From the NCBI GenBank assembly GCA_010405405.1, contig MU004230.1:2762627-2826626 (forward strand): DNA of 64,000 nt. Direction: 5' to 3'. Below are positions 13,466-47,900 of this stretch, in pieces. The notes beneath the pieces were generated by a model. The model saw only the letters and a program-made list of their open reading frames with translations, was not told the origin of the DNA and did no database searches. The position numbers and the translations under genes were made by a program. How positions within the stretch are numbered: the first letter of the stretch is position 1; every line of letters begins with the position of its first letter. This DNA is from Microthyrium microscopicum. Its lineage: Eukaryota.

Positions 13466-16400
13466 GGCTGGTTTGGTGGGTGGTTGGAAAGTTCACAAGT
13501 TGGTTGGTCGCAAAAAAAATTGGAGGGGACGTGAGGGGCGGCCTCTTCGCGCTAGGAATTTGACAGAAGGCAAGGTTGGCAAACTAGTTAGTATAGTCTA
13601 GTACTAGTACTAGTAGGACTAGTATCTAGTATTAAAAGTAGCTACTAGTACTAATTAGTCTAGGGATACTCTAGTACTAGTACTAGTACTATACTAGTCT
13701 AGTATTTTATAATACTAATTAGACTAGTACTATAGTATACTACTAGTATACTAGTACTAGTTCTATACTAGTTTTATAAATAGATTAGGTAATATTATAG
13801 GCTAAAAAATACATTATTTAATTTAGTATTTTACGTAGAATATAATAGTGTTATTCGTTTTAATAGGCGCTAACTAGTTCTAGAGTTATTTAACTTTAAA
13901 GTTAGAGCTTTTTTTTTTTATTAAAAAATAAAGCTTAAATAATTACTAGAGTAGTTAGTTTTTAATTTTAAGTAATTATTTTTTAGGTATAGCCTCCTAG
14001 AATTATACCTAATAGAATACAAAAAGAATTAGAACTAAATACTATTATTATAAGTTTTAATACAAATAATTAGATATTAAGAGTATAAATATAATAGATA
14101 AAAAGAATAAAGTTAACTAAAATACTATATTTAACTTAACTATACTAGAAATTACTATTTTTAAGTAAACCTATATATAGTTCGATTCGTTATAGCGTAA
14201 TGAGTATACTTAGAGTATTAGTTTTATATAATACTTACGTAATAAAGATATATTAAATATATTAGTAATAAAAATTAATATTTATAATAAAAAAGTAAGT
14301 AAATAGTAGAAATAAGTCTTTTAATTATAGTTTTTTAAATAAATCTTAGCTACATTATAAATATATATAAATTCTATATAAAACTATATATCTATTTTAT
14401 CTTATCTAAGCTTATTTAGTATTTAAAAAAACTTTTTATTATTTCTAAGTTTCTTAAATACTACTAAGAGTTATAATACTTAAGATATAAAACCTATATT
14501 ATTATATAAAGCTATTTTAGGGCTATATAATAATATAGAATTTCCTATATATTTGCTATCTAATTTAATTCTAGATTCAAAATATAAAATACTACTTTAT
14601 ATAGTAAAACTTTAAACTATCTTTTATTATTATTTTAAAACTATTTATATAACTACTAAAACTAAACATCTATAAACTATACTATATATTATTATGTACC
14701 TTAAAGCCTACTCTATCTAATAATCTAACTTATCTTTCTTAAATATACACTTATTACTAGTTATATTTTAAATACGTTTTTTTTATTTTTATAATTAACC
14801 TACTTATTAGAGTAAGATAAGCTATGATTTAATATATAATTTATAAAGAATAAATATAAGTAGTAGATTTCTAAATTTTAATGTAATATAACTAGCTATA
14901 AGTATTAATATCTATTAAAAGTTAAACGTAAATCTTTAAATTAGTATATAAATTTATAAGTTCTTTATATTAGGATTTTAACTACTTTTACTATATTATA
15001 TTAAATAATCTATATACTACAAAACTTAAATCTATACTACTACTCTATACTCTAATACTTAATAATCTTATACTTATTTTTACTTTTAATAATAATATTT
15101 TAGTTTTAACTAATCTTTTTATATTTTCTATTTAAACTAATACCTATAACTTCCTAACGCCTAAAAGATAAACCTAACTAACTCTACTACATTAATAATT
15201 ACTCTCTACCTCACTTTCACTACTATCCTCATTTCTAGATTTATATAATAATAATTTTTCAAACTTATTAATATCTGCTAATTTCTAGTTTTTAAGCTAA
15301 ATAATCCTTTTACTAGTCTTTACTAGTAGTTTATTTCTATTATTTAAAATAATATCTGCTCCAATACTAAATATACTTTTAGCACTAGTAGAAGTACTAG
15401 GTATTATTAAGTATTTTTTAGCTAAATGAAATAAAATAGGAAATTGATTTTGGTTTTTAACCTAGTAATCTAAAGGGTGTTTTTTAGGATGCTTACGTTC
15501 TTGTCCTAAATAACGAATATACTCTTCTTTAGTAGTAGTAGTATTATCGTTAGTAATAGGAATAAAAAACGTATTTTCATTATCATCTAAAATAGGATCT
15601 AAATTACTACTTTCTTAATTTAAAGAAGTAGGATTTAGTTTTATTTTAGCTAAATTATACTCTTCTTCAAATAAATTAGTAACGTCTATTAAAATCTAAG
15701 GATAGTAAAATAATAAGCTACGAGGATTATTTGTAAAGTGTATTGTTTTATATCTAGGATCTAAAATCAAAGCTATAATAAAAGGTTTTAGATTTTCTAC
15801 TACTTCTCGATTTATAATCTTATAAGGATAGTATTCTTCTAGCTTATTAAGGCCTTCCTTAATAGCATTAATAAAGTATTTACGCTTAGGATAATCTTCT
15901 AATATAATAGAGTTAAGAGACATAGAAAATTTAAGCATTTAATCTTCTAAATTTTTAAATAGTTAATAAACATGTAAAAGCGTTTAATTAACTGTAGTAT
16001 AAATCTGCCCTTATAAAATAATGGTAGAGGTTTCAAAATAGCCTAAAATGTTCTTTAAATGCTTTAATGCTAGCTAATTAGCTTTATTAAATATAAACTT
16101 CTTAAACTTTTTATCTTTAGTATTAGTAAAGACGTATTCAACATAAGGTTTAAGTTTAAAAAAACAATTTAGAGTATAATACGTAGAATTCCATCTAGTA
16201 TTATTATCTATAGGTATTTTAGTTATTTTAATATCTTTGTCTAGTATCCCTCTTTTAATATAAGGAATCCTTATAGGTTTGGTGTTTTAGTGTTAGATCT
16301 AGAGATCTAATCCTACAGATAAGATCTCTTTATCCCGTTTAGGGTTAGTGTGTCTAAGGATCTCCTAGGCCCTATATCTTTATATTTATAGCTCTATCTT

Positions 16401-19400
16401 TAGATCTCCTCTCTTCGTACGTAGATTCTATAATATTAGCTATATTCTACTCGCCTAATTATGCCTAATAGCTCTTTATATAATCTATGTACCTCTATAC
16501 TAAAAAATAACTCTATACGTTTATTACGCATTACTAAATTGCTACTAGCTAAAGTTGTACTTAAATCTGCTAAATAATAACAATATATTAGTAGTACTAC
16601 TCTTAGTTAGGATTAGTGCTATTTAGATCCTTATAAAAGGTACTAGTAAAAGCTATAAATACCTAATTAAATAAACGCTTTTTTAGCGTTATTTACTAGA
16701 ATAAAGAGCATAAAGTAGTTAAAGCGTTTACTCTACTATGTTCTTCTACTAATAATCTATAGAGGCATTTCTATATCCTCTCTACTTACTATCTACTTAT
16801 ATATACCTTATCTCTTGTCTAAAAATATCTATTATTCTATTATCTTAGTTCTAATAATAATAGAAATAATATTACTATAGATTCTTAGAATAATTAGCGC
16901 GTTAATTATAGTATACTACCTTATCCTCTTTATCTTAAATATAAATACTTATAATCTTATTTACTAAAGCGCTCTCTACTTCTTTATAACTTATATAGAT
17001 ACTTTTTAAAGGCTATATTAGTTATATTAGATATAAAAGCTAATTAGATATTAACTTTATAGTTAACCCTTTAATATAAACTACTTAATATCTAAGATTC
17101 TATTAAACTCCTTTTAATACCTAAAAAGAATAAAAGACTCTTTAATAATAAAGATGCTAAATTCTTATATTAGAACCTTATAGATATCTATAAAGTAGAA
17201 AAAGCTTTTAAAGTAATACTTATTGTAGTATTAATAAAAGAGCTAGAATTAAAGAAAAAGGTATTAATCTTTAATACTACTTAGATTGCTAGCCTTTTTG
17301 TAATAAAAGTAATTAAAGGAAAAGAATATATAATAGAAGCGTTAAATAATAGTAAAGTACGTCTTCTAAAAGATATATAATTCTAGTTAGATTTACTACT
17401 TAGTTGACCTAACCCTCTAAACATCTTTCTAGGATTCCTTTTCTATTTACTTATTATATCTATAGACCTAAACTACTAGGTTACTCTATTAGTAGTAGAT
17501 AAGCCTTTATTTATATAGGCCTTATATAGAATTAGACTAAAATAAGGAAAATAAGTATTAATAATTTACTAAGACGAAATAAACCTATTAAACCTAGTAT
17601 AAGATTAATATCTTACTATTAAAGGGGAGGATTTCCTATATTATTATATTAAATCTAGCTATTCTAAAGATTTCTTTAAATAACTTTATATTATGTTAGT
17701 AATATTATAGACTATAACTCTTTGCTATTAGTCTTTAAGATTAGTATAGGATACTATTATAAAGAACTTCTTAGAATTAAACTTTAATATAACTTATCTT
17801 AAGAAGTTATTTAAAACCTTATAGGAAAAAGCTATAAATTAGTAATAGTTAATAGAGGATATTTAAGCCTATATTAACTAACTATAATATAACTATACTA
17901 TTAAATTAAATATAGTATACTAGTTAGAATAATAAACTATTATAAAGCTAGAGACTAAATAAGCTACTAACCTTTAATATTAAGAATTAGTTAACTTACT
18001 ATGTACTAAGGTTACTAAACTAGAAGAATAGCTATAAGTAGTATTAGTTATAGTACTACTACCCTATATTAATTATAAAGATTTAGAAGATAATACTATT
18101 CTAAGTTATTATATATTAAACTCTATACGTTTAGTAGTATTAAGTAATATCTAATTTATAAGAATGTAATATCTAACCCTATTATTAACTACTATAAGCG
18201 TAGTAAGTAGTTATTCTTATTTTAAGAAACTTAGCGACTTTACTAGAATTAATATAACTAAGTATAAGATATAGAAGGAGAAGATACTTAACGTTTTACT
18301 TAATAATAAGGTATATTTATACGTCTTAATAAAGAAGAAAAAGATTAAATTTATTTATTAACGCCTTATTAGTACTACTTATAACCTTGCCGTTATTTAA
18401 AAAGGTAGAGAATTAAAAAACCTATATAAGTATATAAATAAAATATAAGCTAATTTAGATAGCTACTTTTATTCTAAAAATAGTTTTAAAGACGCTAAAG
18501 CTTAGTTAAAATTACCTAAAGCGAAAATGAAGGATTCTAAGACTCTTTAAGGATTTTTAAGATAATTTAAAGCTAACTCTATAGATATAGAACTTAATAA
18601 ACGTAAGAAGATTATTAAACTTAAAAATCTAATCCTAAAAAAGTTTATAAACTTCTTAGTAGCTTATAATATTAAAGACTTTACTACCTTTTATACTTAA
18701 TTCTATAACGTTAGTTATTATATTAACTATAAACTAAATACTAATGCAAATTTAAATAATAGTAACCTATATTAGAATAACTTACGTTAGAGAAATAATT
18801 AATCTTCTAATTAAGGAAGTAATACTAACGCTAAAAATAATAATATTTCTTAACCCCTAGATATATTTTAAGTACTAAAGACTAAGAAACGTTATATTTA
18901 TTATAATAAAAAAGAATATCGTACTAATACTAAGAACCTACTTTATAAAAATTAAGAGCTATTGTTTAATTAGAAGATTAAAGCTAAAGTTGCTTAACTA
19001 GCTATAGTATTTACGCGCGTACGTTAAGATTAATAGCTCTTTATTAAGAAAGCTTAAGATAAAGATAACTATTATTTATTAAACTAGATACTTCTTTGCT
19101 AAGCTATAAGAAAGAGCTAAATAAGAATAAAGTACAAAATAAATAAAAGAAACGTTAGAATAACTAACTTAACGTATAACTACCTAATATTAAAACTAAT
19201 AAGCAAAAAGCTAAGAAGACCTTTTATAAGAATAAGGAGATTATTATTAAATATCTATATTATTATATTAAGCGCCTTAAATATAAAGAAGTAGTTTGTA
19301 AGAGACGTATTATACTAGTATACTCTTAAGCTATCTATATATTACTAGCTTTTATTATACCTATAATATAGCTAAAGGATATTAAAAAGAAAGACCCTAT

Positions 19401-20289
19401 TATTAAATCCTAATAGACTATAGTAAAGTAAGTTTACGTCCTATATAGTAAAGCATATTCTAATATAGGTATCCTAATTAATATAGGTAGTAGCGCTATA
19501 AGTATTATTAATTCCTACTATTTATAATAATATAGTATACTAATATTTAACCTTACTTAACCTTAAATTATTAAGCTTACTAATAGTAAGTCTATTTCTA
19601 TAGTTAATAAGGCTATCCTTATTAATATTCGTATTAGCTACTATGTTAAATAACTTAGTTATTTTGTTATAGAAGTTACCTTGTACGACCTAATATTAGG
19701 AGCGCCTTAGATAGATTAATATAAAGTTAATCTCTATAGGGAATTAAGAATCTTAACCTTTAGTAGTATATAATATATTACTAATTATATTATATTACAT
19801 TACTTAATATCTATAGATCTAAAAGGACGTATAATTAATCTTCTTTTTCCTAATAATATAGACATTACGTTTATATTAGCTATAGTATTTAAGAAGCTTT
19901 TAAAGCGTAAAGACGCTATTATTAATGCCTTTTAGCTAGAAGATTTTAAGAAAATAAAAGATAATAGAATAATAGATAAGGATAATAATAATGGAGAAAT
20001 AATAAACCTCTCTATTTACGCTATCTCTAAAGAGGATTATATTAAATAATAGGATAAGTAGAATAGCCTATATATATTATAAGAAGAAATACTAAAGCTT
20101 ATTCTAGAGAAATTCTAATAATACTTTAAGGTTTTTAACCTAAAACGAGCTAATACTCTTATACTATATTAAGGCAAATTTAATTATACTATTAACCTTA
20201 TCCTAGACGCAAAAATACTAAAACGTTATTCTATCTTAATATCCCTAAAGTAGGCATTAGTAGTAAAGTAATATATAGAGTAATTATTA

Positions 20290-21494
20290 TTATTAAATCT
20301 TGTTTATTGTCTTTCAGCTACGCTAATGGGCTATGCAGACGCTACTCTTAATAAGCGGGTAAAAACCCTTATCTAATCAGCCGATCTACCCGAATCTAGC
20401 CGAGCCGGCTCACTCCAGGCCTGAGGCCTAGTCCGGCTTCGGCTAATCCCTACATGTTCGGCAAACCGAGGCGCTAACTACATAAGGGAAAACCCCGCTG
20501 TCGTGTTCCGTGGGCCGATCCGTGCCAAGGCCGTTAATACTATGCCAAGCCCCATCGGCTTCCCGAGCCACGGAAGCATTGGTGGGTCGGGAGAGCCGAA
20601 TTCCGGGTAGTATCCAACCGCGGCACCTCTCCAGGCCGGTATCCGTTACGGGTTATTGTTCTTCCGTTCGGTCCACTGCTTCAAGTTCTTGAAGTTGCCG
20701 ATGTTGTCGTCCCCCGAGGGGCCGAGATTCCTTCCTTGTTATTGTGTTAGATCCCTCCATTCGTGCCGCAATACCGAGTCCGAGGCAGCGCCGACGGTCT
20801 GCCGAGAGCTATCCGTCTACGCTGTGCTTCGCTTTCGAGCCGAGATCCAGGTCCTTCGGCTCGGCGTGTTCTGGGTCACCTCCCCCGAGTCTGCCGGCTT
20901 ATTCCTGTAGCGCCGTGTTTGTGCCGACCCGAGGGCACCGTACTTACCGAGCCGTGGTGTCCTGGATCCCGTGATTTACTGCCGTGTCGTTCGGTCCGAT
21001 CTTTGCCTTAACCGATTGCGGCTAGATTTCGGGCTTACTAAGCCAAGGCCGCTCCTCCGATCTAATTGCCAAGAGCCGTAAAAGAATTGGCTTCGGCATG
21101 CCGAATTTGCTGCGCTTCGGCGATGTTGTGGCTTTGTTTGTGTGTGGCTTTGCGTGCCGTGTGGCTGGTTTCCAATCATGTGATTTTTGACGCTAGTCCG
21201 TTATTGTTGGTGGGGCTTCGACAAGGATGATCTTGTGGCTGCATACAGCGGTCACGTGATACAAAAATTTGCACCTTCCGCGACGTATTAAAAAGAGCTG
21301 TAGCTCGTCCTCCACACCTGCTAAAAAGGGAAGGATAACCTTCCCTAAAAAGGGGTGAACGTGGCTTTAAAAGCGAGTAACGATTGCCTTTTTGGGGTGG
21401 TGGGGGAGACGGGAATCGAACCCGTGCCCTGCGGATTCTCAAACAGGTAGGGCCTGCCGCGAGATCGCAAGTACTACCACTGTACTACTCCCCC
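20290..21494 (-). mobile_element. tRNA-headed non-autonomous non-LTR retroposon (long SINE-like), 1205 bp
   Basis: Absent from the equivalent site of Gypsy-A copy 2 (~39980-40000). 18-bp TSD TATATAGAGTAATTATTA at 20272-20289 and 21495-21512; (TAA)n tail at the 3' end; tRNA-like head with A and B boxes at the 5' end; GC-rich against AT-rich flanks. Confidence 0.85.
21398..21494 (-). ncRNA. tRNA-like head of the retroposon (probably not a functional tRNA)
   Basis: GGGGGAG-TA-GTAC-AGTGGTA-GTAC-T-TGCGA...TCCGCA-GGGC-ACGGG-TTCGATT-CCCGT-CTCCCCC-A-CCA. Perfect 7-bp acceptor stem, D arm, T arm with B box and an encoded CCA. The anticodon arm is expanded by about 22 nt and has no canonical U33/anticodon. 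Confidence 0.8.
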
Positions 21495-24400
21495 TATATA
21501 GAGTAATTATTAGCACGCGGGTTTATAAGGCCTTCTAAGTCTTAATATACTATATTAATACTTTATGTTAGTAAGCTAGGTAGAGATATTAGAGTTTATA
21601 TTAATTATTATAAACTTAATAAAATTACTATTAAGAATAGTAATATTCCTTCTCTTATTAATAAAATACTTATACGTTTAATGTATATAAAGTTCTACTC
21701 TAAATTTAACATTATTATAGCGTTTAAATAAATTTAGATTAAACCTAGAGATAAGCATAAAATAGCCTTCCTTACTTAATATAGCCTCTTTAAATTTAAT
21801 GTCCTTTCTTTTAGTCTTATAAGGGGACTAGGAACGTTCTAATCTTATATTAACTACGCATTAATATAATTCCTTAATAACTTTATTACTATCTACCTAG
21901 ATAATATCTTAATCTTTAGTAAGACGTTAGAAAAATATAATATATATGTTTATCTTATCTTAGATATATTAGAATATGTAGATTTATTCTTAAATATTAA
22001 GAAGTCTAAATTCTATATCTAGGAAGTTAAATACCTTAGTCTAATTATTACTACTAAGAATATTAAAATAGATCTTACTAAAGTTTAGGCAGTACTAGAA
22101 TAGAAATAACTAGCGTACTTAAAAGATATTTAGATATTTCTTAAATTTATAAATTTCTATTATTACTTTATATTTAGCTATTTAGCTATAGTAGCGCTAT
22201 TAACTAATCTTATAAGAAAGGACGCTATTATAGTCTTCCTATAAGATCTAAAGGGGCCTAAAAAGAAAGCATTTAAAGCTCTTAAAGAAGCTTTTACTTC
22301 TACTTCTATTCTTATTTATTTTAACTATAATAAAGAAACTTAGGTAGAAATAGATACCTTAGATTAGGCATATATAGTAGTACTATTATAAAAGGACGCT
22401 AATAGAGATCTTAAACTTATTACGTTTCTATTTAAAAAGATAATACCTATAGAATATAATTATAATATCTATAATAAGGAGCTATTAGCTATTATCTAAG
22501 CTTTTAAAGAATAGGAACCTAAACTCTTTAGTATAGAAGACGTTATTAAGGTCTTCTTAGATTATTAAAACCTCTAGATATTTATAAAAATAAAGAAGCT
22601 TACTTACTATTAAATATAATAAGCTAAATTCTTATTATAATTCTACTTCCTTATTAAATATTACCTAGGAATAGCTAATAATAAAGCTAACGCCCTTATG
22701 AGACGTTCCTAAGATCTTCCTTAAAGTAATAATAATCTATAGATTACTTAATAGTATTAACTACTTTTATTTCCCTATTAGTTTAGTATAAAAAAAGTAG
22801 TTAAACTTACTATAATTCTTATTAACCCTATTACCTTATCCCTTTTATAAGTAGTTATAATTATAGTAGATAAGTTAGATGCTACTATAATAGGGGAATT
22901 ATATTTAGAACCTATTATAGAGAGCCTTTAGAATAAGACTCTAGCTAGTTTAGATAATTCTCTACTAGTTAATAAGGAATCCTTAGACTTTGCTCTAGAA
23001 TAGTTCTTAAAAGAGGTAATAAAAGTAAGTAAGGTTAATAAGCTATTAATTATAATTTAGCTAGCTAAAGTATAAAAAGACTACTTCTTACCTTTTAATA
23101 TTCTTAACTAAAAGCATATTAAGTTAATAGATTATAAAGCTATGCTAGATAGTACTATACTCTACTAGTAAAAGCTCTTTATCTCTACTATCTATTTATA
23201 CTATAAAGCTATAAAATAGGCTTATTAATATAAGGTAATAGGATATAGAAGAGTTATAATAATATACTACTATTTATAGTAAGATTACTAGTAGCTACGT
23301 ATGTTAGAGTTAGTAAAGACTTTTATTAAGGGCTATTACTATATCTTTACTAAACCTATATATTAAAAGAAGTAAGGTTTATTAAGATCCTTTCTACTAC
23401 TAGATTATGCTTAGTTAGATATTTCTATTAACTTTGCTATCTCCTTACTAAGATATATATACTAAGAGATTATCTACTACTATATTATAATTATAGTTAA
23501 TTGCCTTATATAGTCTTAGAGATTTATTACCCTTCTTAACCTATTAGTTAAAATAATAATTATTATATTTATTAACTACGTCTAAAAGCTTTATAATTAA
23601 CTAGATTCTATTTTATTAGATAGAAGAACCTAGTTTATATTAGTATTTTAGAGTCGCCTTTATAAGCGTATTAGTATTACTCTAAGGTTAAGTATAGCTT
23701 AGTATCTTAAGATAGATAGAATTATAGAAATTTTAATTACTATACTTAAATAGTACTTATACTTATTTATTAATTAGGACTAAGATAATTAGGCTTTATT
23801 GTTACCCTTTACTAAGTTTATAGTTAATTCTATAGTAAGCGCTACTATAGGCTTTATACTATTTAAGGCCTAGAATAGTTTTTTACTAAAATTAGGATTA
23901 GAATTAGCTTATTATCTACTACTTAAGACTTTATATAAATCTATAGTAGCTTATAAGGAAGTTGCTTTAGTAGACTATATTTAGAATAGTAGAGAGAAGC
24001 TATACTAATTCTTAAAGGAATAATTAATATAGGCGTAGTTATAGTAAAAGCTCTATACTAATAAGTACTAGCGTTTAGTACCTAATCTTTATCTAGGAGA
24101 TTAGGTTTGTCTTAATATTTATAACTATAATATAATATACCCTTTAAAAACGCTTAATAATAAAAGCGTAGGATTATTTAAAGTCTTTTATAAGATTAAT
24201 AGTATTACTTATAAATTAAATCTACCTAAGTTAATAAAAATATATTTAGTATTTTATACTTAGTTATTATATCCTATTAATAATAAGGCTAAGCTTCTTA
24301 AAGAAGTTAATTCTTTATTAGCTATTATTAGCAAAGTTGAAGGTAAAGAAAAAGAATAGCTTGTAGATGCTATTACTAATAGTAAATAGGAAGGCTATAG

Positions 24401-38900: not shown

Positions 38901-41900
38901 TAAAACTAATAAATAAAAAGCTAAAAAGACCTTTTATAAGAATAAGGAAGTTATTATTAGATATCTATATTATTATATTAAGCGCCTTAAATATAAAGAA
39001 GTAGTTTATAAAGAATATATTATACTAGTATACTCTTAAGCTATTTATATATTACTAGCTTCTATTATACCTATAGTATAGCTAAAGGATATTAAAAAGA
39101 AAGACTCTATTATTAGATCCTAATAGACTATAGTAAAGTAAGTTTATATTCTACGTAGTAAAGCATATTCTAATATAGATATCCTAATTAATATAAGTAG
39201 TAGCGTTATAGGTATTATTAATCCTTACTACCTAAGATAATATAATATACTAATATTTAACCTAACTTAATCTTAAATTATTAAGCTTACTAATAGTAAG
39301 TCTATTTCTATAGTTAATAAGGCTACCTTTATTAATATCTATATTAGCTACTATATTAAATAGCTTAGTTATTTTGTTATAAAAGTTACCTTATATAACC
39401 TTATATTAGGAGCGCCTTAGATAGACTAATATAAAGTTAATCTCTATAGAAAATTAAGAACCTTAACCTTTAGTAGTATATAATATATTACTAATTATAT
39501 TATATTACGTTACCTAATATTAATAGATCTAAAAGGACGTATAATTAATTTTCTTCTCTTTAATAATATAAATATTACGTTTATATTAGCTATAGTATTT
39601 AAGAAGCTTTTAAAGCGTAAAGATGCTATTATTAATACCTTTTAGCTAGAAGATTTTAAAAAGATAAAAGATAATAAAATAATAAATAAAGATAATAATA
39701 ATAAAGAAGTAATAAATCTCTTTACTTACGCTATCTCTAAAGAAGATTATATTAAATAGTAGAATAAGTAAGATAGCTTATATATATTATAAGAAGAAAT
39801 ACTAAAGCTTATTCTAGAAGAGTTCTAATAATACTTTAAGGTTTTTAACCTAAAATAAGCTAATACTCTTATACTATATTAAGGTAAATTTAATTACGCT
39901 ATTAACTTTATCCTAAATATAAAAATACTAAAATATTATTCTATCTCTATATCCCTAAAGTAAGTATTAGTAGTAAAGTAATATATAGAGCAATTATTAG
40001 TATATAGGTTTATAAGGCTTTCTAAGTCTTAATATGCTATACTAATACTTTACGTTAGTAAGCTAAGTAGTAGTATTAGAGTTTATATTAATTATTATAG
40101 ACTTAATAAAATTACTATTAAGAATAGTAATATTCCTTCTCTTATTAATAAAATACTTATATATTTAATACGTATAAAGTTTTACTTAAAATTTAATATT
40201 ATTATAGTATTTAAATAGATTTAAATTAAACCTAAAGATAAGTATAAAATAGCCTTCCTTACTTAATATAGCCTCTTTAAATTTAACGTTCTCCTCTTTA
40301 GTCTTATAGAAGGACTAGGAATATTTTAATCTTACGTAAACTATATATTAATATAATTCTTTAATAATTTTATTACTATCTACCTTAATAATATCTTAGT
40401 CTTTAGTAAGACGTTAGAGAAATATAATATATATATTTATCTTATCTTAAATATATTAGAACGTATAAGTTTATTTTTAGATATTAAGAAGTCTAAATTC
40501 TATATCTAGGAAGTTAAATACCTTAGTCTAATTATTACTACTAAGGGTATTAAAATAAATCTTACTAAAGTTTAAGTAGTACTAGAATAGAAATAACTAG
40601 CATACTTAAAAGACGTTTAGGCATTTCTTAAATTTACTAATTTCTACTATTACTTTATATTTAGCTATTTAGCTATAGTAGCGCTATTAACTAATCTTAT
40701 AAGAAAAGATACTATTATAATCTTTCTATAAGATCTAAAGGGGCTAGAAGAAAGAGCGTTTAAAGCTCTTAAAGAAGCTTTTACTTCTACCTCTATCCTT
40801 ATTTACTTTAACTATAATAAGGAAACTTAAGTAGAAATAAATGCTTTAGATTAGGTATACATAGTAGTATTATTATAAAAGGATACTAATAAAGATCTTA
40901 AACTCGTTACGTTCCTATCTAAGAAGATAATACTTATAGAATATAATTATAATATCTATAATAAAGAGCTATTAGCTATTATCTAAGCTTTTAAAGAATA
41001 AGAACCTAAACTCTTTAGTATAAAAGATATTATTAAGGTCTTTTTAAATTATTAAAACCTCTAAATATTTATAAAAATAAAGAAGCTTACTTACTATTAA
41101 ATATAATAGGCTAAATTCTTATTATAATTCTACTTCCTTATTAAATATTACTTAAGAATAACTAATAATAAAGCTAATACTCTTATAAGACGTTCCTAAG
41201 ATCTTCCTTAAAGCGATAATAATCTATAAATTACTTAGTAGTATTAACTACTTCTATTCCCTTACTAGTTTAGTACGAAGAAGGTAGTTAAGCTTACTAT
41301 AATTCTTATTAACCTTATTACCTTATCTTTTTTATAAGTAGCTATAATTATAGTAAATAAGTTAGATGCTACTATAATAGGAGAATTATATTTAGAACCT
41401 ATTATAGAGAGCCTTTAAAATAAGGCTCTAGCTAGTTTAGATAATTCTTTACTAATTAATAAGGAATCCCTAGACTTTGTCCTAGAATAGTTCTTAAAAG
41501 AAGTAATAAAAGTAAGCAAGGTTAATAAGCTATTAATTATAATTTAACTAGCTAAAATATAAAAAGACTACTTCCTACCTTTTAATATCCCTAACTAAGA
41601 GTATATTAAGTTAATAAATTATAAAGCTATACTAAATAGTATAGTACTCTACTAATAGAAGCTCTTTATTCTTACTACCTACTTATACTATAAAGCTATA
41701 AAGTAGGCTTATTAATATAAAATAATAGAATATAGAGAAGTTATAATAATATACTATTATTTATAGTAAGACTACTAGTAGCTATATATATTAGAGTTAG
41801 TAAAGACTTTTATTAAGGGCTATTACTATATCTTTACTAAACTTATACGTTAAAAGAAGTAAGGCTTATTAAGATCCTTTCTACTACTAGAGCGTGCTTA

Positions 41901-44900: not shown

Positions 44901-47900
44901 AAAGTTATGGATTGCTTAGACAAGCTTATCTAATTAGCTAGTCTTAATAATATCTTTTTATAATATCTCTAGGTTGGCTAGCATGCTATCTATCCTAGGG
45001 TAATTAATTAGCTTACCTAGGACTAGGGTAAAACCCCCTATAGTTAGTTAATTAATTAGCTTGCCTTCTATAGTCAGCACATTGACTTTATTGGCAATAA
45101 TTATAGCAAGTTTAATTATTATAGGTTATTCACTATTAATAAGGAGGATAGCAATCTTAATAGCATATTAAGTATCGTAAGAGTAAGATATCTCGTAGTA
45201 AGTATTAAAGTTATAAGGGAAAAGGATTAGTCGTGTTTATTAAGCAATCTATAAATCATTATTAAATTTTAGAAGATCTTATAATCTCTAAGTTAGCGCA
45301 TTTACTTTTACGTTAGAGGGACTATTACAATATTTAATCTTGAACTAGAATTAGGAGAGGAACTCTACTTATTAAGCTTAATAGCAAAATAGCTTTTTAG
45401 TTAACATAAAAGTACGCAAGTTAAGATAGTTAGTAAAAACTTGCATAAAGTCAAAGGTTAAAAATAATTTAGGTTCCTATTCCTTAAACGCCCGTACGAT
45501 TATAAGGAGCTCTTTATTATAGATATCGTAATTATATTCTACTAGAGTTATCTTTTTAGAGAAGAAAGCTACTAGGCAAAGCTTACTATGTGCGCCTTTT
45601 TATAAAAGGATAGCTACTACTACCTAATCTAAGGTATTAGTCTTAACCTAAGTCTTAGCGTTAGGGTTAAAGTAATAAAGGATTAGGGTAGTAGTAAAGG
45701 CCTTCTTTAAGGCGTTAAATGCTTATTCCTTAGGTCTAGTCTTACTCTAAGGGAAATATAAGAGAGCGTCCTTTTTGGTTAGTACGATAAGTAGTATAAC
45801 AATTTTTGAGTATCCTTTAATAAAACGGCAATAGAAGTTTATAAAGCTAAGGAATATCTAGACGTCTTTTAGGAAGGTAGAGTAGTGCTAGTTAAGTATA
45901 GCGTTAACCTTCTTTTTGTCTATTTAGATTCTATTAGGTATAATAATAATACTAAGATATTTAACTAATTAGGTTATAAACTTAGATTTAGAAATATTAA
46001 AGTAGAGTCTAGCTTTTTTAAGCTTATTAAGGATTAAGTAAACGTAGGTAATATACTCCTCTTTAGTCTTACTCTAAACGAGGACGTCATTAAGGTAAAC
46101 TATGATAAAGTTATTAAGGTGTTCACGTATAGCACTATTAATATAAAATTAAAAACTTCCTAGTAATCCTATTATGCTAAATAGCATTACTAAGGTTTTA
46201 AAGAGTCTATAGCATATTAAAAATGCGATCTTATGCTTATCTTCTTCACGAATTTAAATATTATTAAAGGTAGTAATAACGTTAAATTGTAAAAAGAATT
46301 TTGCTTTATAGATCTTTGTCAATGTTTCTATTAAGAGTAGGAGTACGTTTTAGTTAGTTAGCATAATCTTATTAAGTCCATAGTAGTTAACATAGACATA
46401 AATACTACCGCCTAGTTTACTAACGCATAATACAAGTATAGCATAGTAAGAGGTACTTAGTTAGATAAAGCCTTTTCTAAGCATATTCTTAATATATTCC
46501 TTAACGACCTATACTTATTAGCAAGATATGCTATAGAATTTACGTATAAGTACTTTTACATTTAGGTTAGTAGTAATAGCATAGTTAAAACCTAGTTAGT
46601 ATGGTGGCAATTTATTAGCTTAGTAAGGGTTAAATAAGGGGACGTAGTAATAGAATTTTAGCGGTATTAATTTTAGTAATTCTTCTCACGTTAGTAGGTC
46701 ATAGTTAAGCTTTTCGCGCTATTTAGTATAGTCTTTAGTAGAGATCATAATAATACTAGCAACGTTCCGCTAAGAAATAAGGTTAGGGTCTTCTTCTTCT
46801 TCTAAGGCTTTAAAGTCTTCTTAGTAAAGGGCTATAAAATAATAATCTTTGCGCTTAATTATAGCTATAAAGACTCATAGCAATACTATATAGATATTAA
46901 GGGTTTCTTCTTGTTGTTTGTCTACAACTACTTAACCTTTATAGTTAATAATAATTAAGTAATAGGAGGCTATGCAGTACTTTATATAATGCTTAGAGTA
47001 GAAACCTAATATACGTTAGCCTCCCTAGAGCGTAACTTCGTATTTATTTACCTATGAGTCGCTAAGAATTATATCGTGGTTAGCGATTTTTATTATAAAG
47101 TAGAGAATCTATTCAAAGTAGATATTAATACGTAATGTAATAGCTACTATGTAGGTTATTTTTATAACAGCGTGGCTATTAGCTATTTTGGTATAGCAGG
47201 GTTGGGTTATCTTTACTAACGGAATGCTATAAATTTTAAGATAGTAGGAGTTAATGATGCTAAAAGTACTACTACCTATATTAATTAGGACTTTAGTTTT
47301 AGTATACGCGTTATTATTAATAAAGACATTGCTAATAATGCTCTACTATTAGCCTATCTTTAGAATAGAATATTTTGGTAATTGGTCAATAGGAACATAG
47401 GCTACTAATATATAGATAATAGCTATGCCTATAGGATTACTTTTAGTCTTAGAGTTACTTAGGTAGTTAATAACGGCCTCTATTTAACGTTTTTATTATT
47501 TATTATGCGCTTCTATTTTATTTAGCTCTTCTGCGCAACGTTATAGAGGAGTATCTAGTTTCTCTAGTCCTAGTAGTAATAATTATTATATATTAATAAG
47601 TAATTATGCTATAGGTTTAGATTTTATAGTTAGGTGTTGTCTTACTATAGATAAATACTAGCAAGTTTAGTAGAGATATTAAAATTAGAGAGGGCTAGCT
47701 TGCTTTTATACTTTAAGTTCTTGTCTTTATAGTTATAACCTTATTCGCTATATTAAGTGTAGTAGTAGTCTCGTATTAGACGTTAGTAGAGAGTAACTTT
47801 GTAGTATGGTACGTAGTTAATTTAGTTATTAGTTTAGTTGCTATTATTATTATTCTAACTACTAGATAGTTTCTTACTATCATTAGTTTTGCGTTTAAGG

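Follow-up and report, generated by a model that had tools for sequence, protein, structure and literature searches.

A 1.2-kb non-coding retroposon with a pre-tRNA-like head in a RIP-degraded Gypsy element of a dothideomycete

The minus strand of the 64-kb window (the whole stretch of DNA that was analysed, 64,000 nucleotides) carries, between two copies of an 18-bp target duplication (TSD), an insert that starts at the first nucleotide (G1) of a tRNA-like cloverleaf. This insert is very probably a young copy of a multi-copy family of non-coding, non-autonomous non-LTR retroposons in a dothideomycete, placed by LINE target-primed reverse transcription (TPRT) into a Gypsy element that was already degraded by RIP. 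In our interpretation it is a SINE-like retroposon that depends on a LINE, and an unusually long relative of the known SINE-type elements. Within one recently active family, it unites a perfect Pol III-type head with a cluster of terminators, a body of 1.1 kb and a 3' signal of the Pol II type, which makes it testable whether tRNA-headed retroposons are necessarily Pol III units or whether a tRNA fold can serve as a processing signal.

Insertion site and copies of the element

The insert and its surroundings comprise the following features:

20272-20289, no strand: TSD copy on the 3' side of the element; exact 18-bp direct repeat, single at the empty paralogous site
20290-21494, minus strand: the exact insert, 1205 bp
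21495-21512, no strand: TSD copy on the 5' side of the element; exact repeat and paralog comparison
21513-24275, plus strand: host, a RIP-degraded Ty3/Gypsy-type pol (RVT_1, RT_RNaseH_2, Tf2-type SH3), stops read as X
39982-39999, no strand: empty paralogous target within a second host-repeat copy, from flank alignments

The TSD, TATATAGAGTAATTATTA, is identical over 18 bp at 20272-20289 and 21495-21512. A paralogous host repeat elsewhere in the window aligns with the left flank of the insert as far as 39999 (90.3% over 518 bp) and with the right flank from 39982 onwards (87.8% over 518 bp); since the 18-mer is single in this paralog, 39982-39999 is the empty site. The 18-bp TSD claimed in the earlier note is thus genuine and not a chance repeat. 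In addition, public contigs of organism A connect 20293 with 21520, omitting 1226 bp (two contigs in run X1, one in X5), and in-silico excision of the insert plus one TSD copy gives an unbroken Gypsy RT frame (...YIE*LL|ARGFIRPSKS...). The insert lies antisense to the Ty3/Gypsy pol. It is without RIP mutation (GC 54.5%, RIP indices 1.07 and 0.95), and its flanks are RIP-mutated (GC 22-24%, RIP indices 1.63-1.66 and 0.12). An un-RIPped insert inside a RIP-destroyed region shows recent retroposition despite strong RIP in this genome, and bears on how strong-RIP fungi retain active elements. The TSD, the simple-repeat tail, the empty site and the 5'-truncated family members described below support insertion by LINE-type TPRT, as the earlier note had proposed. 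An LTR element, a DNA transposon and a MITE were rejected, the insert being without long terminal direct or inverted repeats. The only tandem structure was one weak array of three 10-bp copies at 20375-20403.

Numerous copies, mutated for the most part in the RIP manner, were found in contigs of public runs. At an identity of at least 85%, flanks included, 293 pieces were recovered from X1 and 299 from X5, and the changed places were C>T or G>A in 235 of 302 cases in X1 and in 212 of 287 in X5. Details of copies were taken from the 28 listed of 623 contig pieces. A search for copies with common 5' ends had been proposed in the earlier note, and the public contigs hold both: homology of independent copies ends at 21490-21497, that is, at G1 within 4 nt, in the listed pieces 7, 8, 16, 23 and 24 and at the loose ends 21495 (X2) and 21497 (X5). 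At least one 5'-truncated copy, found in X2 and spanning 20296-20470, has its own 14-bp TSD (TCATTTTTAATGTT) and a (CAA)n tail. The junction of head and body was collinear in all six bridging pieces among those listed (7, 8, 16, 23, 24 and 28), which come from three coded organisms. A variant with a deletion joining 21385 to 21462 was represented by one contig in X1 and one in X5.

Within the 64-kb window, blastn returned no further copy, nor did a RIP-tolerant search in purine/pyrimidine code, whose best match scored 60 bits, a value that 14 of 30 shuffled windows equalled or exceeded. In metagenome contigs, neither the junction of head and body nor a gapped pattern of the head had a match. 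No LINE was found in the window either, where five of 70 ORFs of at least 45 aa in the AT-rich block had a Pfam match, all of hAT or Gypsy type, and purine/pyrimidine-coded matching of the window gave no partner-LINE match.

Contig depth in X2, which we guessed to be an RNA run, was 385 for identical copies and 455 for a subfamily diverged by about 7%; in DNA runs, the corresponding depths were 63 vs 82 and 826 vs 879. The X2 contigs were rejected as evidence of expression given this common pattern, and an X2 contig that reaches 960 nt upstream of G1 was likewise not taken as such.

A head in the form of an unspliced pre-tRNA

The first 97 nt of the element contain the following features, given in the order of its sense strand:

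21398-21494, minus strand: tRNA-like head, consisting of cloverleaf, discriminator A and CCA (ARAGORN; fold -42.8 kcal/mol, z -3.07)
21477-21487, minus strand: A-box-like TAGTACAGTGG, 10/11 to what we take to be the consensus, TRGCNNAGTGG
21435-21459, minus strand: intron-like insert of 25 nt at 37/38, the canonical intron site (ARAGORN intron mode)
21412-21422, minus strand: B-box-like GGTTCGATTCC, the sole match in the window, 0.01 expected
21398-21400, minus strand: encoded CCA after the discriminator A at 21401 (sequence and ARAGORN)

G1 of the cloverleaf adjoins the TSD without a gap, in agreement with the 5' end given in the earlier note. The intron-like insert and the encoded CCA, which that note overlooked, bear on the origin and processing of the head, whose form is that of an end-processed, unspliced fungal pre-tRNA. 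In the predicted fold, the intron-like insert is base-paired to the anticodon region; the spacing from A box to B box is compatible with an intron. The B box matches 11/11 positions of the consensus that we assume for it. The A-box pattern at one mismatch occurs 10 times in the window, with 15 expected, and is no rarer than chance; it was rejected as statistical evidence and counts only through its position inside the cloverleaf.

According to ARAGORN, position 26 is missing from the spliced head and the variable loop measures 3 nt; in the predicted fold of 300 nt, other pairings compete with the acceptor stem. It is possible that the head is a tRNA in decay and is cleaved poorly by RNase P. 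Rfam recognised in it only the tRNA-like domain of tmRNA, below threshold (30.9 bits, against a gathering score of 47). A pattern of T arm, acceptor and CCA had no match in prokaryote genomes, and there is therefore no sign of a bacterial origin for the CCA-bearing head.

The pre-tRNA form of the head, with its intron, discriminator A and CCA, suggests that it was acquired by template switching of a reverse transcriptase. The 97 nt would be a retro-copy of a pre-tRNA with processed ends, starting at G1, with its intron retained and CCA added; on reaching the 5' end of the body RNA, the reverse transcriptase would have jumped to this pre-tRNA, and the fused unit would have founded the family. 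We consider this origin, from a retro-copied unspliced pre-tRNA and a template jump, to be reasonably probable. In budding yeast, intron-containing pre-tRNAs with processed ends and CCA are described as being exported and spliced in the cytoplasm (PMC5749166), and chimeric retrocopies produced by LINE template switching are described in a fungus (PMC2104539). Read in this way, the head would be the molecular fossil of a defined RNA, an end-processed, CCA-bearing and still unspliced pre-tRNA, which is cytoplasmic in fungi. It would lend unusually direct support to the derivation of SINE heads from LINE reverse transcriptase jumping onto small RNAs, and would hint at the cellular location of the jump. 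The literature searched contained no retroposon head that combines an intron with CCA, and no description of an element from this fungus.

Oligo-T runs, body and transcription

Downstream of the head, the element contains:

21263-21372, minus strand: sense-strand oligo-T cluster made up of a T4 and four T5 runs (run count and shuffles)
21323-21346, minus strand: 8-bp hairpin AGGGAAGG-TTAT-CCTTCCCT leading straight into the second T5, terminator-like (MFE and centroid folds)
21253-21260, minus strand: ATCACGTG box with palindromic core, matching RTCACRTG on both strands (motif match)
21177-21184, minus strand: ATCACATG box, matching RTCACRTG (motif match)
20309-21262, minus strand: GC-rich non-coding body, about 0.95 kb (GC, ORF, Pfam, fold and Rfam)
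20361-20365, minus strand: lone T5 outside the head-proximal cluster, GGGTTTTTACCC (run count)
20303-20308, minus strand: AATAAA hexamer, candidate polyadenylation signal, 13 nt from the 3' end (sequence; function by analogy with Eg-R1)
20290-20295, minus strand: 3' tail supplied by the element, two TAA units, TAATAA (sequence and paralog)

The five T runs reported in the earlier note are all where it placed them, i.e. a T4 at 21369-21372 and T5 runs at 21347-21351, 21323-21327, 21290-21294 and 21263-21267. The four T5 runs lie 47-135 nt past the head, each followed by a purine, and their clustering is non-random, since four were never reached when the 143-nt segment that contains them was shuffled 20000 times at the mononucleotide level. 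The remaining 965 nt hold a single extra T5. In element positions, the T5 runs are at 144-148, 168-172, 201-205, 228-232 and 1130-1134, and T4 runs at 123-126, 412-415 and 1003-1006. The cluster is kept in near-identical copies of two other coded organisms; conservation of the T runs is known only from copies 99-100% identical, which carry little information on selection.

The boxes that the earlier note had placed behind the T runs are present, and three of the six RTCACRTG matches in the window fall inside the element, with 1.18 expected in the whole window. The same note's description of some 0.9 kb of structured, GC-rich body with no recognisable protein also stands: GC content is 57% at element positions 261-1100, and the predicted fold of the body is more stable than those of 20 shuffled sequences (z -4.2). 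A protein-coding reading was rejected, given that the element has no sense ORF longer than 102 aa (the longest, of 102 aa, overlaps the head) and that none of its eight ORFs matched Pfam at E<=0.1. With Rfam, no family reached its gathering score in 19500-22500 at E<=1, where a sub-threshold tmRNA-like match and a chance leader match were obtained. The (TAA)n tail of the earlier note could be upheld in part: two TAA units come from the element and the next two belong to the target duplication. In another copy (X2, loose end at 20296) the tail is of the (CAA)n type.

In the mechanism that we propose, RNA polymerase II would make the full-length 1.2-kb RNA, reading through from outside or starting at a promoter of the element itself. 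The cloverleaf would be an RNase P site, by which all RNAs would begin at G1 whatever their transcription start, and the encoded CCA after the discriminator would prevent tRNase Z from severing the head from the body. The T5 cluster, with one run behind a hairpin, would halt Pol III drawn by the A and B boxes of the head; AATAAA would assist 3'-end formation, and a partner LINE would recognise the 3' region and the (YAA)n tail. Our confidence in the whole statement of a Pol II or read-through RNA of 1.2 kb that is trimmed by RNase P and protected by CCA, mechanism included, is evenly balanced. We lean against efficient Pol III transcription and towards Pol II because of the non-random T runs (four T5 and a T4) within 135 nt of the head, the T5 directly behind the 8-bp hairpin, the additional T4 and T5 runs in the body and the length of 1205 nt, because the element, with AATAAA 13 nt from its end and no genomic poly(A), is like the Pol II-transcribed Eg-R1 in this respect, and because two RTCACRTG boxes are present. 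In yeast, T5 is described as the minimal Pol III terminator, and neighbouring hairpins as markedly strengthening weak terminators (10.1101/2021.08.27.457903). Running against the mechanism, a perfect B box and a 10/11 A box are what a Pol III SINE requires, T5 is weak in budding yeast, where a few per cent of read-through could sustain a family, and an element dependent on read-through requires source copies behind active promoters. The search of the window for a partner LINE, which found none, and the possible decay of the head with its competing pairings weigh on the same side.

We consider it possible, on the unlikely side, that the element is instead a conventional, very long tRNA-derived SINE, transcribed by Pol III from its A and B boxes with rare read-through of weak T5 runs, which would just throttle it, and that the partner LINE copies this 1.2-kb template. 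To our knowledge, natural Pol III products are far shorter than 1.2 kb, and Pol III is regarded as the polymerase of all known tRNA-headed SINEs. The intact cloverleaf with its boxes and the exact common 5' end, typical of SINE families, agree with a long SINE, as does the report that efficient termination in yeast needs T6 (10.1101/2021.08.27.457903). SINE-like elements of 700-900 bp have been published from fungi, and the annotation of AfuSINE2 includes a 'tRNA-related CCA end' in the head and a tail of trinucleotide repeats (PMC5063351). However, the T5 runs, purine-followed, clustered after the head and in one case placed behind a hairpin, are succeeded by more T4 and T5 runs downstream, and an element that depends on read-through would be expected to shed them; the length is far above that of natural Pol III products as we know them, and AATAAA at the 3' end, together with the Eg-R1 precedent, suits Pol II.

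Quite improbable in our view is that the head is a functionless fossil of the founding template switch, with an internal Pol II promoter near G1 and with T runs and CCA that are neutral. SINEU and Eg-R1 offer examples of SINE-like elements transcribed by Pol II, with heads added by RNA recombination (10.1101/242271), and the copies in X2 and X6, with 0-2 differences across 320-490 bp, are too alike to read selection on the head. This explanation, however, needs an internal Pol II promoter that starts exactly at G1, and none was identified in the element, whose RTCACRTG boxes lie 240-320 nt downstream. The non-random T5 cluster also speaks against it, and neutrality of the head is hard to sustain because a perfect cloverleaf in the RNA would meet RNase P and, without CCA, tRNase Z, which would cut it. 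Finally, a one-off chimeric retrocopy or rearranged tRNA gene instead of a mobile family, an outcome that would have undone the earlier note's reading and that has in its favour the single copy in the 64-kb window, is extremely improbable, being refuted, barring assembly artefacts of a single locus, by the many public-contig copies with other flanks, shared G1 ends, truncated copies with their own TSD, RIP-mutated relatives and an identical head-body junction in every listed bridging piece.

To return to the mechanism based on Pol II and RNase P, a wider and more tentative reading is that this lineage exploits host tRNA maturation, through an RNase P cut at G1, a CCA shield, pre-tRNA-like export and T5 insulation. 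Any transcript entering a copy would be cut by RNase P at G1, the shape of an unspliced pre-tRNA would carry the RNA from the nucleus to the site of LINE protein synthesis, and the T5 cluster would shield the body from Pol III attracted by the head.

Relation to known elements

Long fungal SINE-like elements of 700-900 bp and the Pol II-transcribed Eg-R1 and SINEU have already been published, and the earlier proposal of an undescribed element class was overstated; because Eg-R1 and SINEU are precedents, we regard the element as a variant and not as a separate class. With SINE2 elements it shares a tRNA head with A and B boxes, a non-coding sequence, marks of TPRT and a repeated family with a common 5' end. 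It departs from them in length (1205 bp, against roughly 80-700 bp) and in containing internal Pol III terminators, five T5 and three T4 runs. The fungal tRNA-derived SINEs, which include Mg-SINE/MGL, SINE2-1_BG/Tad1-24_BG, Foxy and AfuSINE2, likewise have tRNA-related heads with A and B boxes, are non-coding, have a TSD and depend on LINEs, and their tails are trinucleotide repeats, ACT in AfuSINE2-1a (PMC5063351; PMC3747384). They measure 140-472 bp, and the longest listed fungal 'SINE-like' elements 700-900 bp. As far as their descriptions go, what sets the present element apart is a complete, intron-bearing cloverleaf with four T5 runs clustered behind it.

Eg-R1 of Blumeria and SINEU are also non-coding and flanked by a TSD (10.1101/242271; PMC4494074). 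Eg-R1, of about 0.7 kb, has internal oligo(T) that would stop Pol III and, like our element, carries AAUAAA close to its 3' end and no genomic poly(A) (10.1101/242271). The SINEU heads (U1/U2) were added repeatedly at the 5' end (10.1101/242271; PMC4494074). In the accounts available, the 5' end of Eg-R1 has no A and B boxes and the SINEU heads are Pol II-type snRNAs, whereas the head described here carries both boxes in a cloverleaf of the Pol III and RNase P type, with CCA. Pol II transcription has been reported as shown for Eg-R1; for the present element it is a proposal.

If true, the tentative reading of a lineage that exploits host tRNA maturation would make the element the host-enzyme counterpart of the strategy by which R2 and L1Tc use an HDV-like ribozyme. 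The 5' end of R2 is cut from a co-transcript by such a ribozyme. In L1Tc, an HDV-like ribozyme likewise frees the 5' end from co-transcripts, and it is shared with the non-autonomous NARTc (PMC3185411). The proposed logic is the same, in that an RNA-processing module in the first nucleotides sets a defined 5' end. Unlike the L1Tc/NARTc module as described there, however, that of the present element would be a substrate of host RNase P and not a self-cleaving ribozyme. Rfam found no ribozyme in the element, including an HDV-like one at +1 (19500-22500, E<=1).

The element resembles, in addition, the WEIRD-MGL/Mg-SINE chimeras of Magnaporthe and the U6-L1 chimeras of mammals, in which a processed, full-length small RNA is fused at the 5' end to a second transcript and the TSD encloses both parts (PMC2104539). 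According to what is reported of WEIRD-MGL and U6-L1, such chimeras arise repeatedly with differing junctions, whereas the copies of the element seen here share one fixed junction, collinear in six of six listed bridging pieces. This therefore indicates that the chimera itself became a propagating family. If the tentative reading of a lineage that exploits host tRNA maturation is true, the element would also be a living intermediate in the birth of a SINE from a template-switch chimera.

Insertion of the element into a RIP-degraded Gypsy copy

The tRNA-headed element occupies 1205 bp of the minus strand (20290-21494) and carries an exact 18-bp direct repeat at both ends. The features referred to below are as follows.

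Features of the insert and of its empty site (window coordinates)
20272-20289 and 21495-21512: two copies of the 18-bp direct repeat TATATAGAGTAATTATTA, exact match
39482-40499: second, RIP-diverged copy of the host Gypsy with the 18-mer once, 88-90% identity over 2 x 518 bp
20303-20308: AATAAA, 13 nt before the element end
21253-21260 and 21177-21184: matches to RTCACRTG

Directly to the right of the insert, the plus strand holds a stop-riddled pol of Ty3/Gypsy type (read with stops as X; RVT_1 from residue 25, RT_RNaseH_2 with E 1.9e-16, and a Tf2-type SH3). The Gypsy frame to the left continues into this right-hand frame when the insert is excised along with one copy of the repeat (...YIE*LL|ARGFIRPSKS...). 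Alignment of the left flank with the second Gypsy copy extends as far as 39999 (90.3% of 518 bp), and that of the right flank starts at 39982 (87.8% of 518 bp); since the two alignments overlap in the 18-mer, the latter is single there and the locus is an empty site. In addition, contigs of coded organism A, two in public run X1 and one in X5, bridge 20293 to 21520 without the insert. The repeat is thus a true target duplication, according to the Gypsy pol, the restored frame, the paralogous empty site and the joined contigs. A third Gypsy RT piece, 65% identical, lies at 46035-46451 on the opposite strand.

The duplication and the 5' end at G1 of the cloverleaf, both claimed in the earlier note from sequence alone, are therefore confirmed: the repeat is exact, with an empty paralogous site, and G1 adjoins the duplication with zero extra bases in the flank alignment. 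Its (TAA)n tail holds in part. The element does end in TAA units, but only one TAATAA derives from it, the next belonging to the target, so that the tail is just two units long.

The insert is the sole GC-rich island within an AT-rich 38-kb block (13500-52500; 13-33% GC) with strong RIP indices (TpA/ApT 1.64; (CpA+TpG)/(ApC+GpT) 0.25), which separates two gene-bearing blocks at 1-13 kb and 52-64 kb (44-50% GC; 0.66-0.75 and 1.26-1.32 for the same indices). The ORFs of the latter (WDR3/Utp12, GH35 beta-galactosidase, DyP peroxidase and an Alg9-like transferase) are ordinary ascomycete genes; the 875-aa WDR3 ORF has 100% identity to an NCBI protein assigned to Microthyrium microscopicum, followed by matches in other Dothideomycetes (63-75% identity). 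GC content is 54.5% in the insert and 22-24% in its 2-kb flanks, and the RIP indices are 1.07 and 0.95 in the former against 1.63-1.66 and 0.12 in the latter. The insertion postdates the RIP destruction of its Gypsy host, and the insert itself was spared effective RIP. No LINE relic was found in the window, the five of 70 AT-block ORFs of at least 45 aa with a Pfam match being all of hAT or Gypsy type. A RIP-degraded hAT transposase relic lies at 15204-17363 on the minus strand (Dimer_Tnp_hAT, E 2.2e-11 with stops as X), and the same domain is present in an intact 54-aa ORF at 15300-15461.

A multi-copy retroposon with a defined 5' end

Within the window, blastn found no second copy, and in a RIP-tolerant, purine/pyrimidine-coded search the best match reached 60 bits, a score of at least 60 being attained by 14 of 30 shuffles. 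Pattern scans of metagenome and prokaryote collections gave zero matches. In a public-run index the element was present in six runs from three studies, and the contigs of four of them (X1 and X5 of organism A, X2 of organism B, X6 of organism C) were aligned to 19900-21900 at an identity of at least 85%, which gave 623 pieces, 28 of them listed. Organism A contributed 293 (X1) and 299 (X5), with all identity classes represented (89/58/87/59 and 82/61/102/54, respectively). Most changed places, counted with the flanks, were C>T or G>A (X1, 235 of 302; X5, 212 of 287), an excess that is a RIP pattern.

Among the pieces listed, the five reaching the head (7, 8, 16, 23 and 24) all terminate at 21490-21497, and loose ends with unrelated flanks start at 21495 (X2) and 21497 (X5). 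In these five and in piece 28, head and body are collinear across their junction. A 76-bp deletion in the head, from 21385 to 21462, occurs in one contig of X1 and one of X5. In X2 the element ends at 20296 in one contig, where a tail of (CAA)n type and then flank follow, and another contig departs at 20470. Both flanks contain TCATTTTTAATGTT, so that 20296-20470 represents a copy of about 175 bp, truncated at its 5' end and bearing TCATTTTTAATGTT as its own 14-bp duplication. The search for copies that the earlier note had called for, run here on public contigs, thus yielded many, including independent ones ending at G1, and LINE-mediated retroposition is supported by the target duplication, the empty site and the truncated copy. 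The element is shown to be a LINE-type retroposed, non-coding, multi-copy unit with a defined 5' end at G1. A one-off tRNA-mRNA chimera is ruled out by the multiple copies, their shared 5' end and the truncated copy with its own duplication.

Further truncation points are suggested by two other loose ends in X2, at 20348 and 21158. At the second (element position 337) a copy starts with unrelated flank just downstream of the RTCACRTG box at 21177-21184; this may be a usual truncation of the 5' end or else point to an internal start site. Organisms B and C have copies that show little or no divergence (0 differences over 20400-20891, 20867-21085 and 21135-21457; 2 differences and 2 gaps over 21056-21495), and all three organisms share a subfamily diverged by about 7%, with indels. 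The occurrence of identical copies and of one subfamily under three labels could reflect one species, close relatives, an RNA library or horizontal spread. The AT-rich flanks left no trace in X2 contigs in the 19900-21900 alignment. At the variant places listed, organism A had 10-11 variant contigs over 21240-21440, 17-18 over 20302-20368 and 2-5 in the mid-body; the excess at the T-run region and the 3' end could be due to shorter relatives with the head-proximal part or to spurious AT-richer matches at 85%.

The head as a probable copy of a pre-tRNA

ARAGORN without introns reports the 97-nt head as an odd tRNA; with introns allowed, a canonical cloverleaf is obtained, with acceptor (7 bp), D (4 bp) and T (5 bp, TTCGATT loop) stems, an anticodon arm with a 5-bp stem and a 7-nt loop containing CTC, and an intron of 25 nt that lies at the canonical eukaryotic site, between positions 37 and 38. 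In the free-energy fold (-42.8 kcal/mol, z -3.07) the intron pairs with the anticodon region and lengthens the arm, as in yeast pre-tRNAs. The only Rfam match of the head, sub-threshold, was to tmRNA tRNA-like ends, and reflects the acceptor, T arm and ACCA. The head also contains a perfect B box, the sole match in the window, and an A box at 10 of 11 positions, both judged by their consensus motifs. After splicing, position 26 is missing and the variable loop is 3 nt long, so the head is regarded as tRNA-like and not as a demonstrably working tRNA.

The head ends in discriminator A followed by CCA, which fungal nuclear tRNA genes are not known to encode. Budding yeast pre-tRNAs are described as undergoing leader and trailer removal and CCA addition in the nucleus, the intron-containing form being exported and spliced in the cytoplasm (PMC5749166); given this order, a species starting at G1, ending in CCA and retaining its intron is a normal cytoplasmic one in fungi. 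It is exactly this end-processed, unspliced form that the DNA of the head reproduces. LINE reverse transcriptases are reported to jump templates, yielding such fusions in a fungus (PMC2104539), and the same route is proposed for the heads of SINEU elements (10.1101/242271). On these grounds we infer that template switching supplied the head and that the resulting fusion founded a family. The fixed junction in all six bridging pieces among those listed fits a founder and not repeated independent fusions. In a search of the published literature, no description of intron and CCA in one retroposon head was found, nor any element described from Microthyrium microscopicum.

Oligo-T cluster, predicted transcription and relatives

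The T4-T5 runs noticed earlier behind the head are where they had been placed (T4 at element positions 123-126; T5 at 144-148, 168-172, 201-205 and 228-232), and their clustering is non-random: when the 143-nt segment was mononucleotide-shuffled 20000 times, four T5 runs were never obtained, the maximum being three (7 times), and the remaining 965 nt of the element hold only one more T5. Each of the four is followed by a purine. The second stands directly behind an 8-bp hairpin (AGGGAAGG-TTAT-CCTTCCCT) present in both MFE and centroid folds. The first (21347-21351) can pair with the A5 right behind CCA (21389-21393; element 102-106), CCCCAAAAAGG with CCTTTTTAGGG forming 10 pairs and one mismatch in the centroid fold, so the T runs may have an additional structural role in the RNA. 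For budding yeast Pol III, five Ts are given as the minimal terminator and six as needed for efficient termination, and RNA structures near weak terminators as improving them markedly (10.1101/2021.08.27.457903). By these rules the segment has the look of a functional Pol III stop with several layers. In X2 and X6, the copies covering the runs show no changes in them; these copies are too similar to that of the window to indicate selection.

As with everything said here of its RNA, how the element is transcribed can only be inferred, and we give about even credence to Pol II, which we favour over Pol III. Under the Pol II model the RNA would come from read-through or an own promoter, the cloverleaf would be an RNase P site fixing its 5' end, and the T5 cluster would halt any Pol III drawn by the head. 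This leaning is based on the terminator cluster, placed where it would be most harmful to a Pol III unit, on the 1.2-kb length with additional T4 and T5 runs downstream, on the AATAAA at a 3' end from which genomic poly(A) is absent, and on the same combination of features described for Eg-R1 of Blumeria, whose RNA is reported to be polyadenylated and is regarded as a Pol II product (10.1101/242271). That the head is instead a Pol III promoter, its T5 runs being leaky, would agree with the intact promoter and the weakness of T5 in yeast; with the four points just listed all weighing against it, we consider this the less likely of the two models, though a serious rival.

A consideration absent from the earlier note is tRNase Z, which should cut a well-folded head after the discriminator and sever the body; the encoded CCA is the predicted reason why the head stays joined to it, and would thus be functional today whichever polymerase acts. 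Since initiation by fungal Pol III lies upstream of tRNA position 1, RNase P trimming is plausible under either model as well. The combination of Pol II and RNase P, with the CCA as an added argument, appears plausible. The proposed 5' processing module would resemble the HDV-like ribozymes described for L1Tc and for NARTc, its non-autonomous partner, where they occupy position +1 (PMC3185411); an Rfam scan of the element detected no ribozyme.

By anatomy and insertion mode the element is a tRNA-headed SINE-like retroposon, which departs from usual SINEs in being neither short nor free of internal Pol III stops. Fungal relatives in kind include Mg-SINE (472 bp), mgsr1 (800 bp), Egr1 (700 bp), EGH24 (900 bp), Foxy and AfuSINE2, the last having, according to its annotation, a CCA end related to tRNA, tails of ACT repeats and a resemblance to the 3' UTR of a Tad/I-clade LINE (PMC5063351); SINE-LINE pairs such as Mg-SINE/MGL and SINE2-1_BG/Tad1-24_BG are known in fungi (PMC3747384). 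Judging by the published descriptions, our element is longer than the 472-900 bp ones, and shares three features with Eg-R1, which differs in lacking A and B boxes. The "undescribed element class" of the earlier note is therefore too strong, given the SINE-like anatomy, the likeness to Eg-R1 and the long fungal relatives, and we rate the element as a variation on known SINE-like retroposons rather than a separate class.

The body, described before as structured, GC-rich and devoid of recognisable protein, has 57% GC, folds better than its shuffles (z -4.2, 20 shuffles) and holds no meaningful ORF or Pfam match, which bears out that description. The two boxes seen behind the T runs are indeed RTCACRTG matches, presumably a putative Cbf1/CDEI-type motif; three of the six matches in the window sit at these two sites, with 1.18 expected across all 64 kb.
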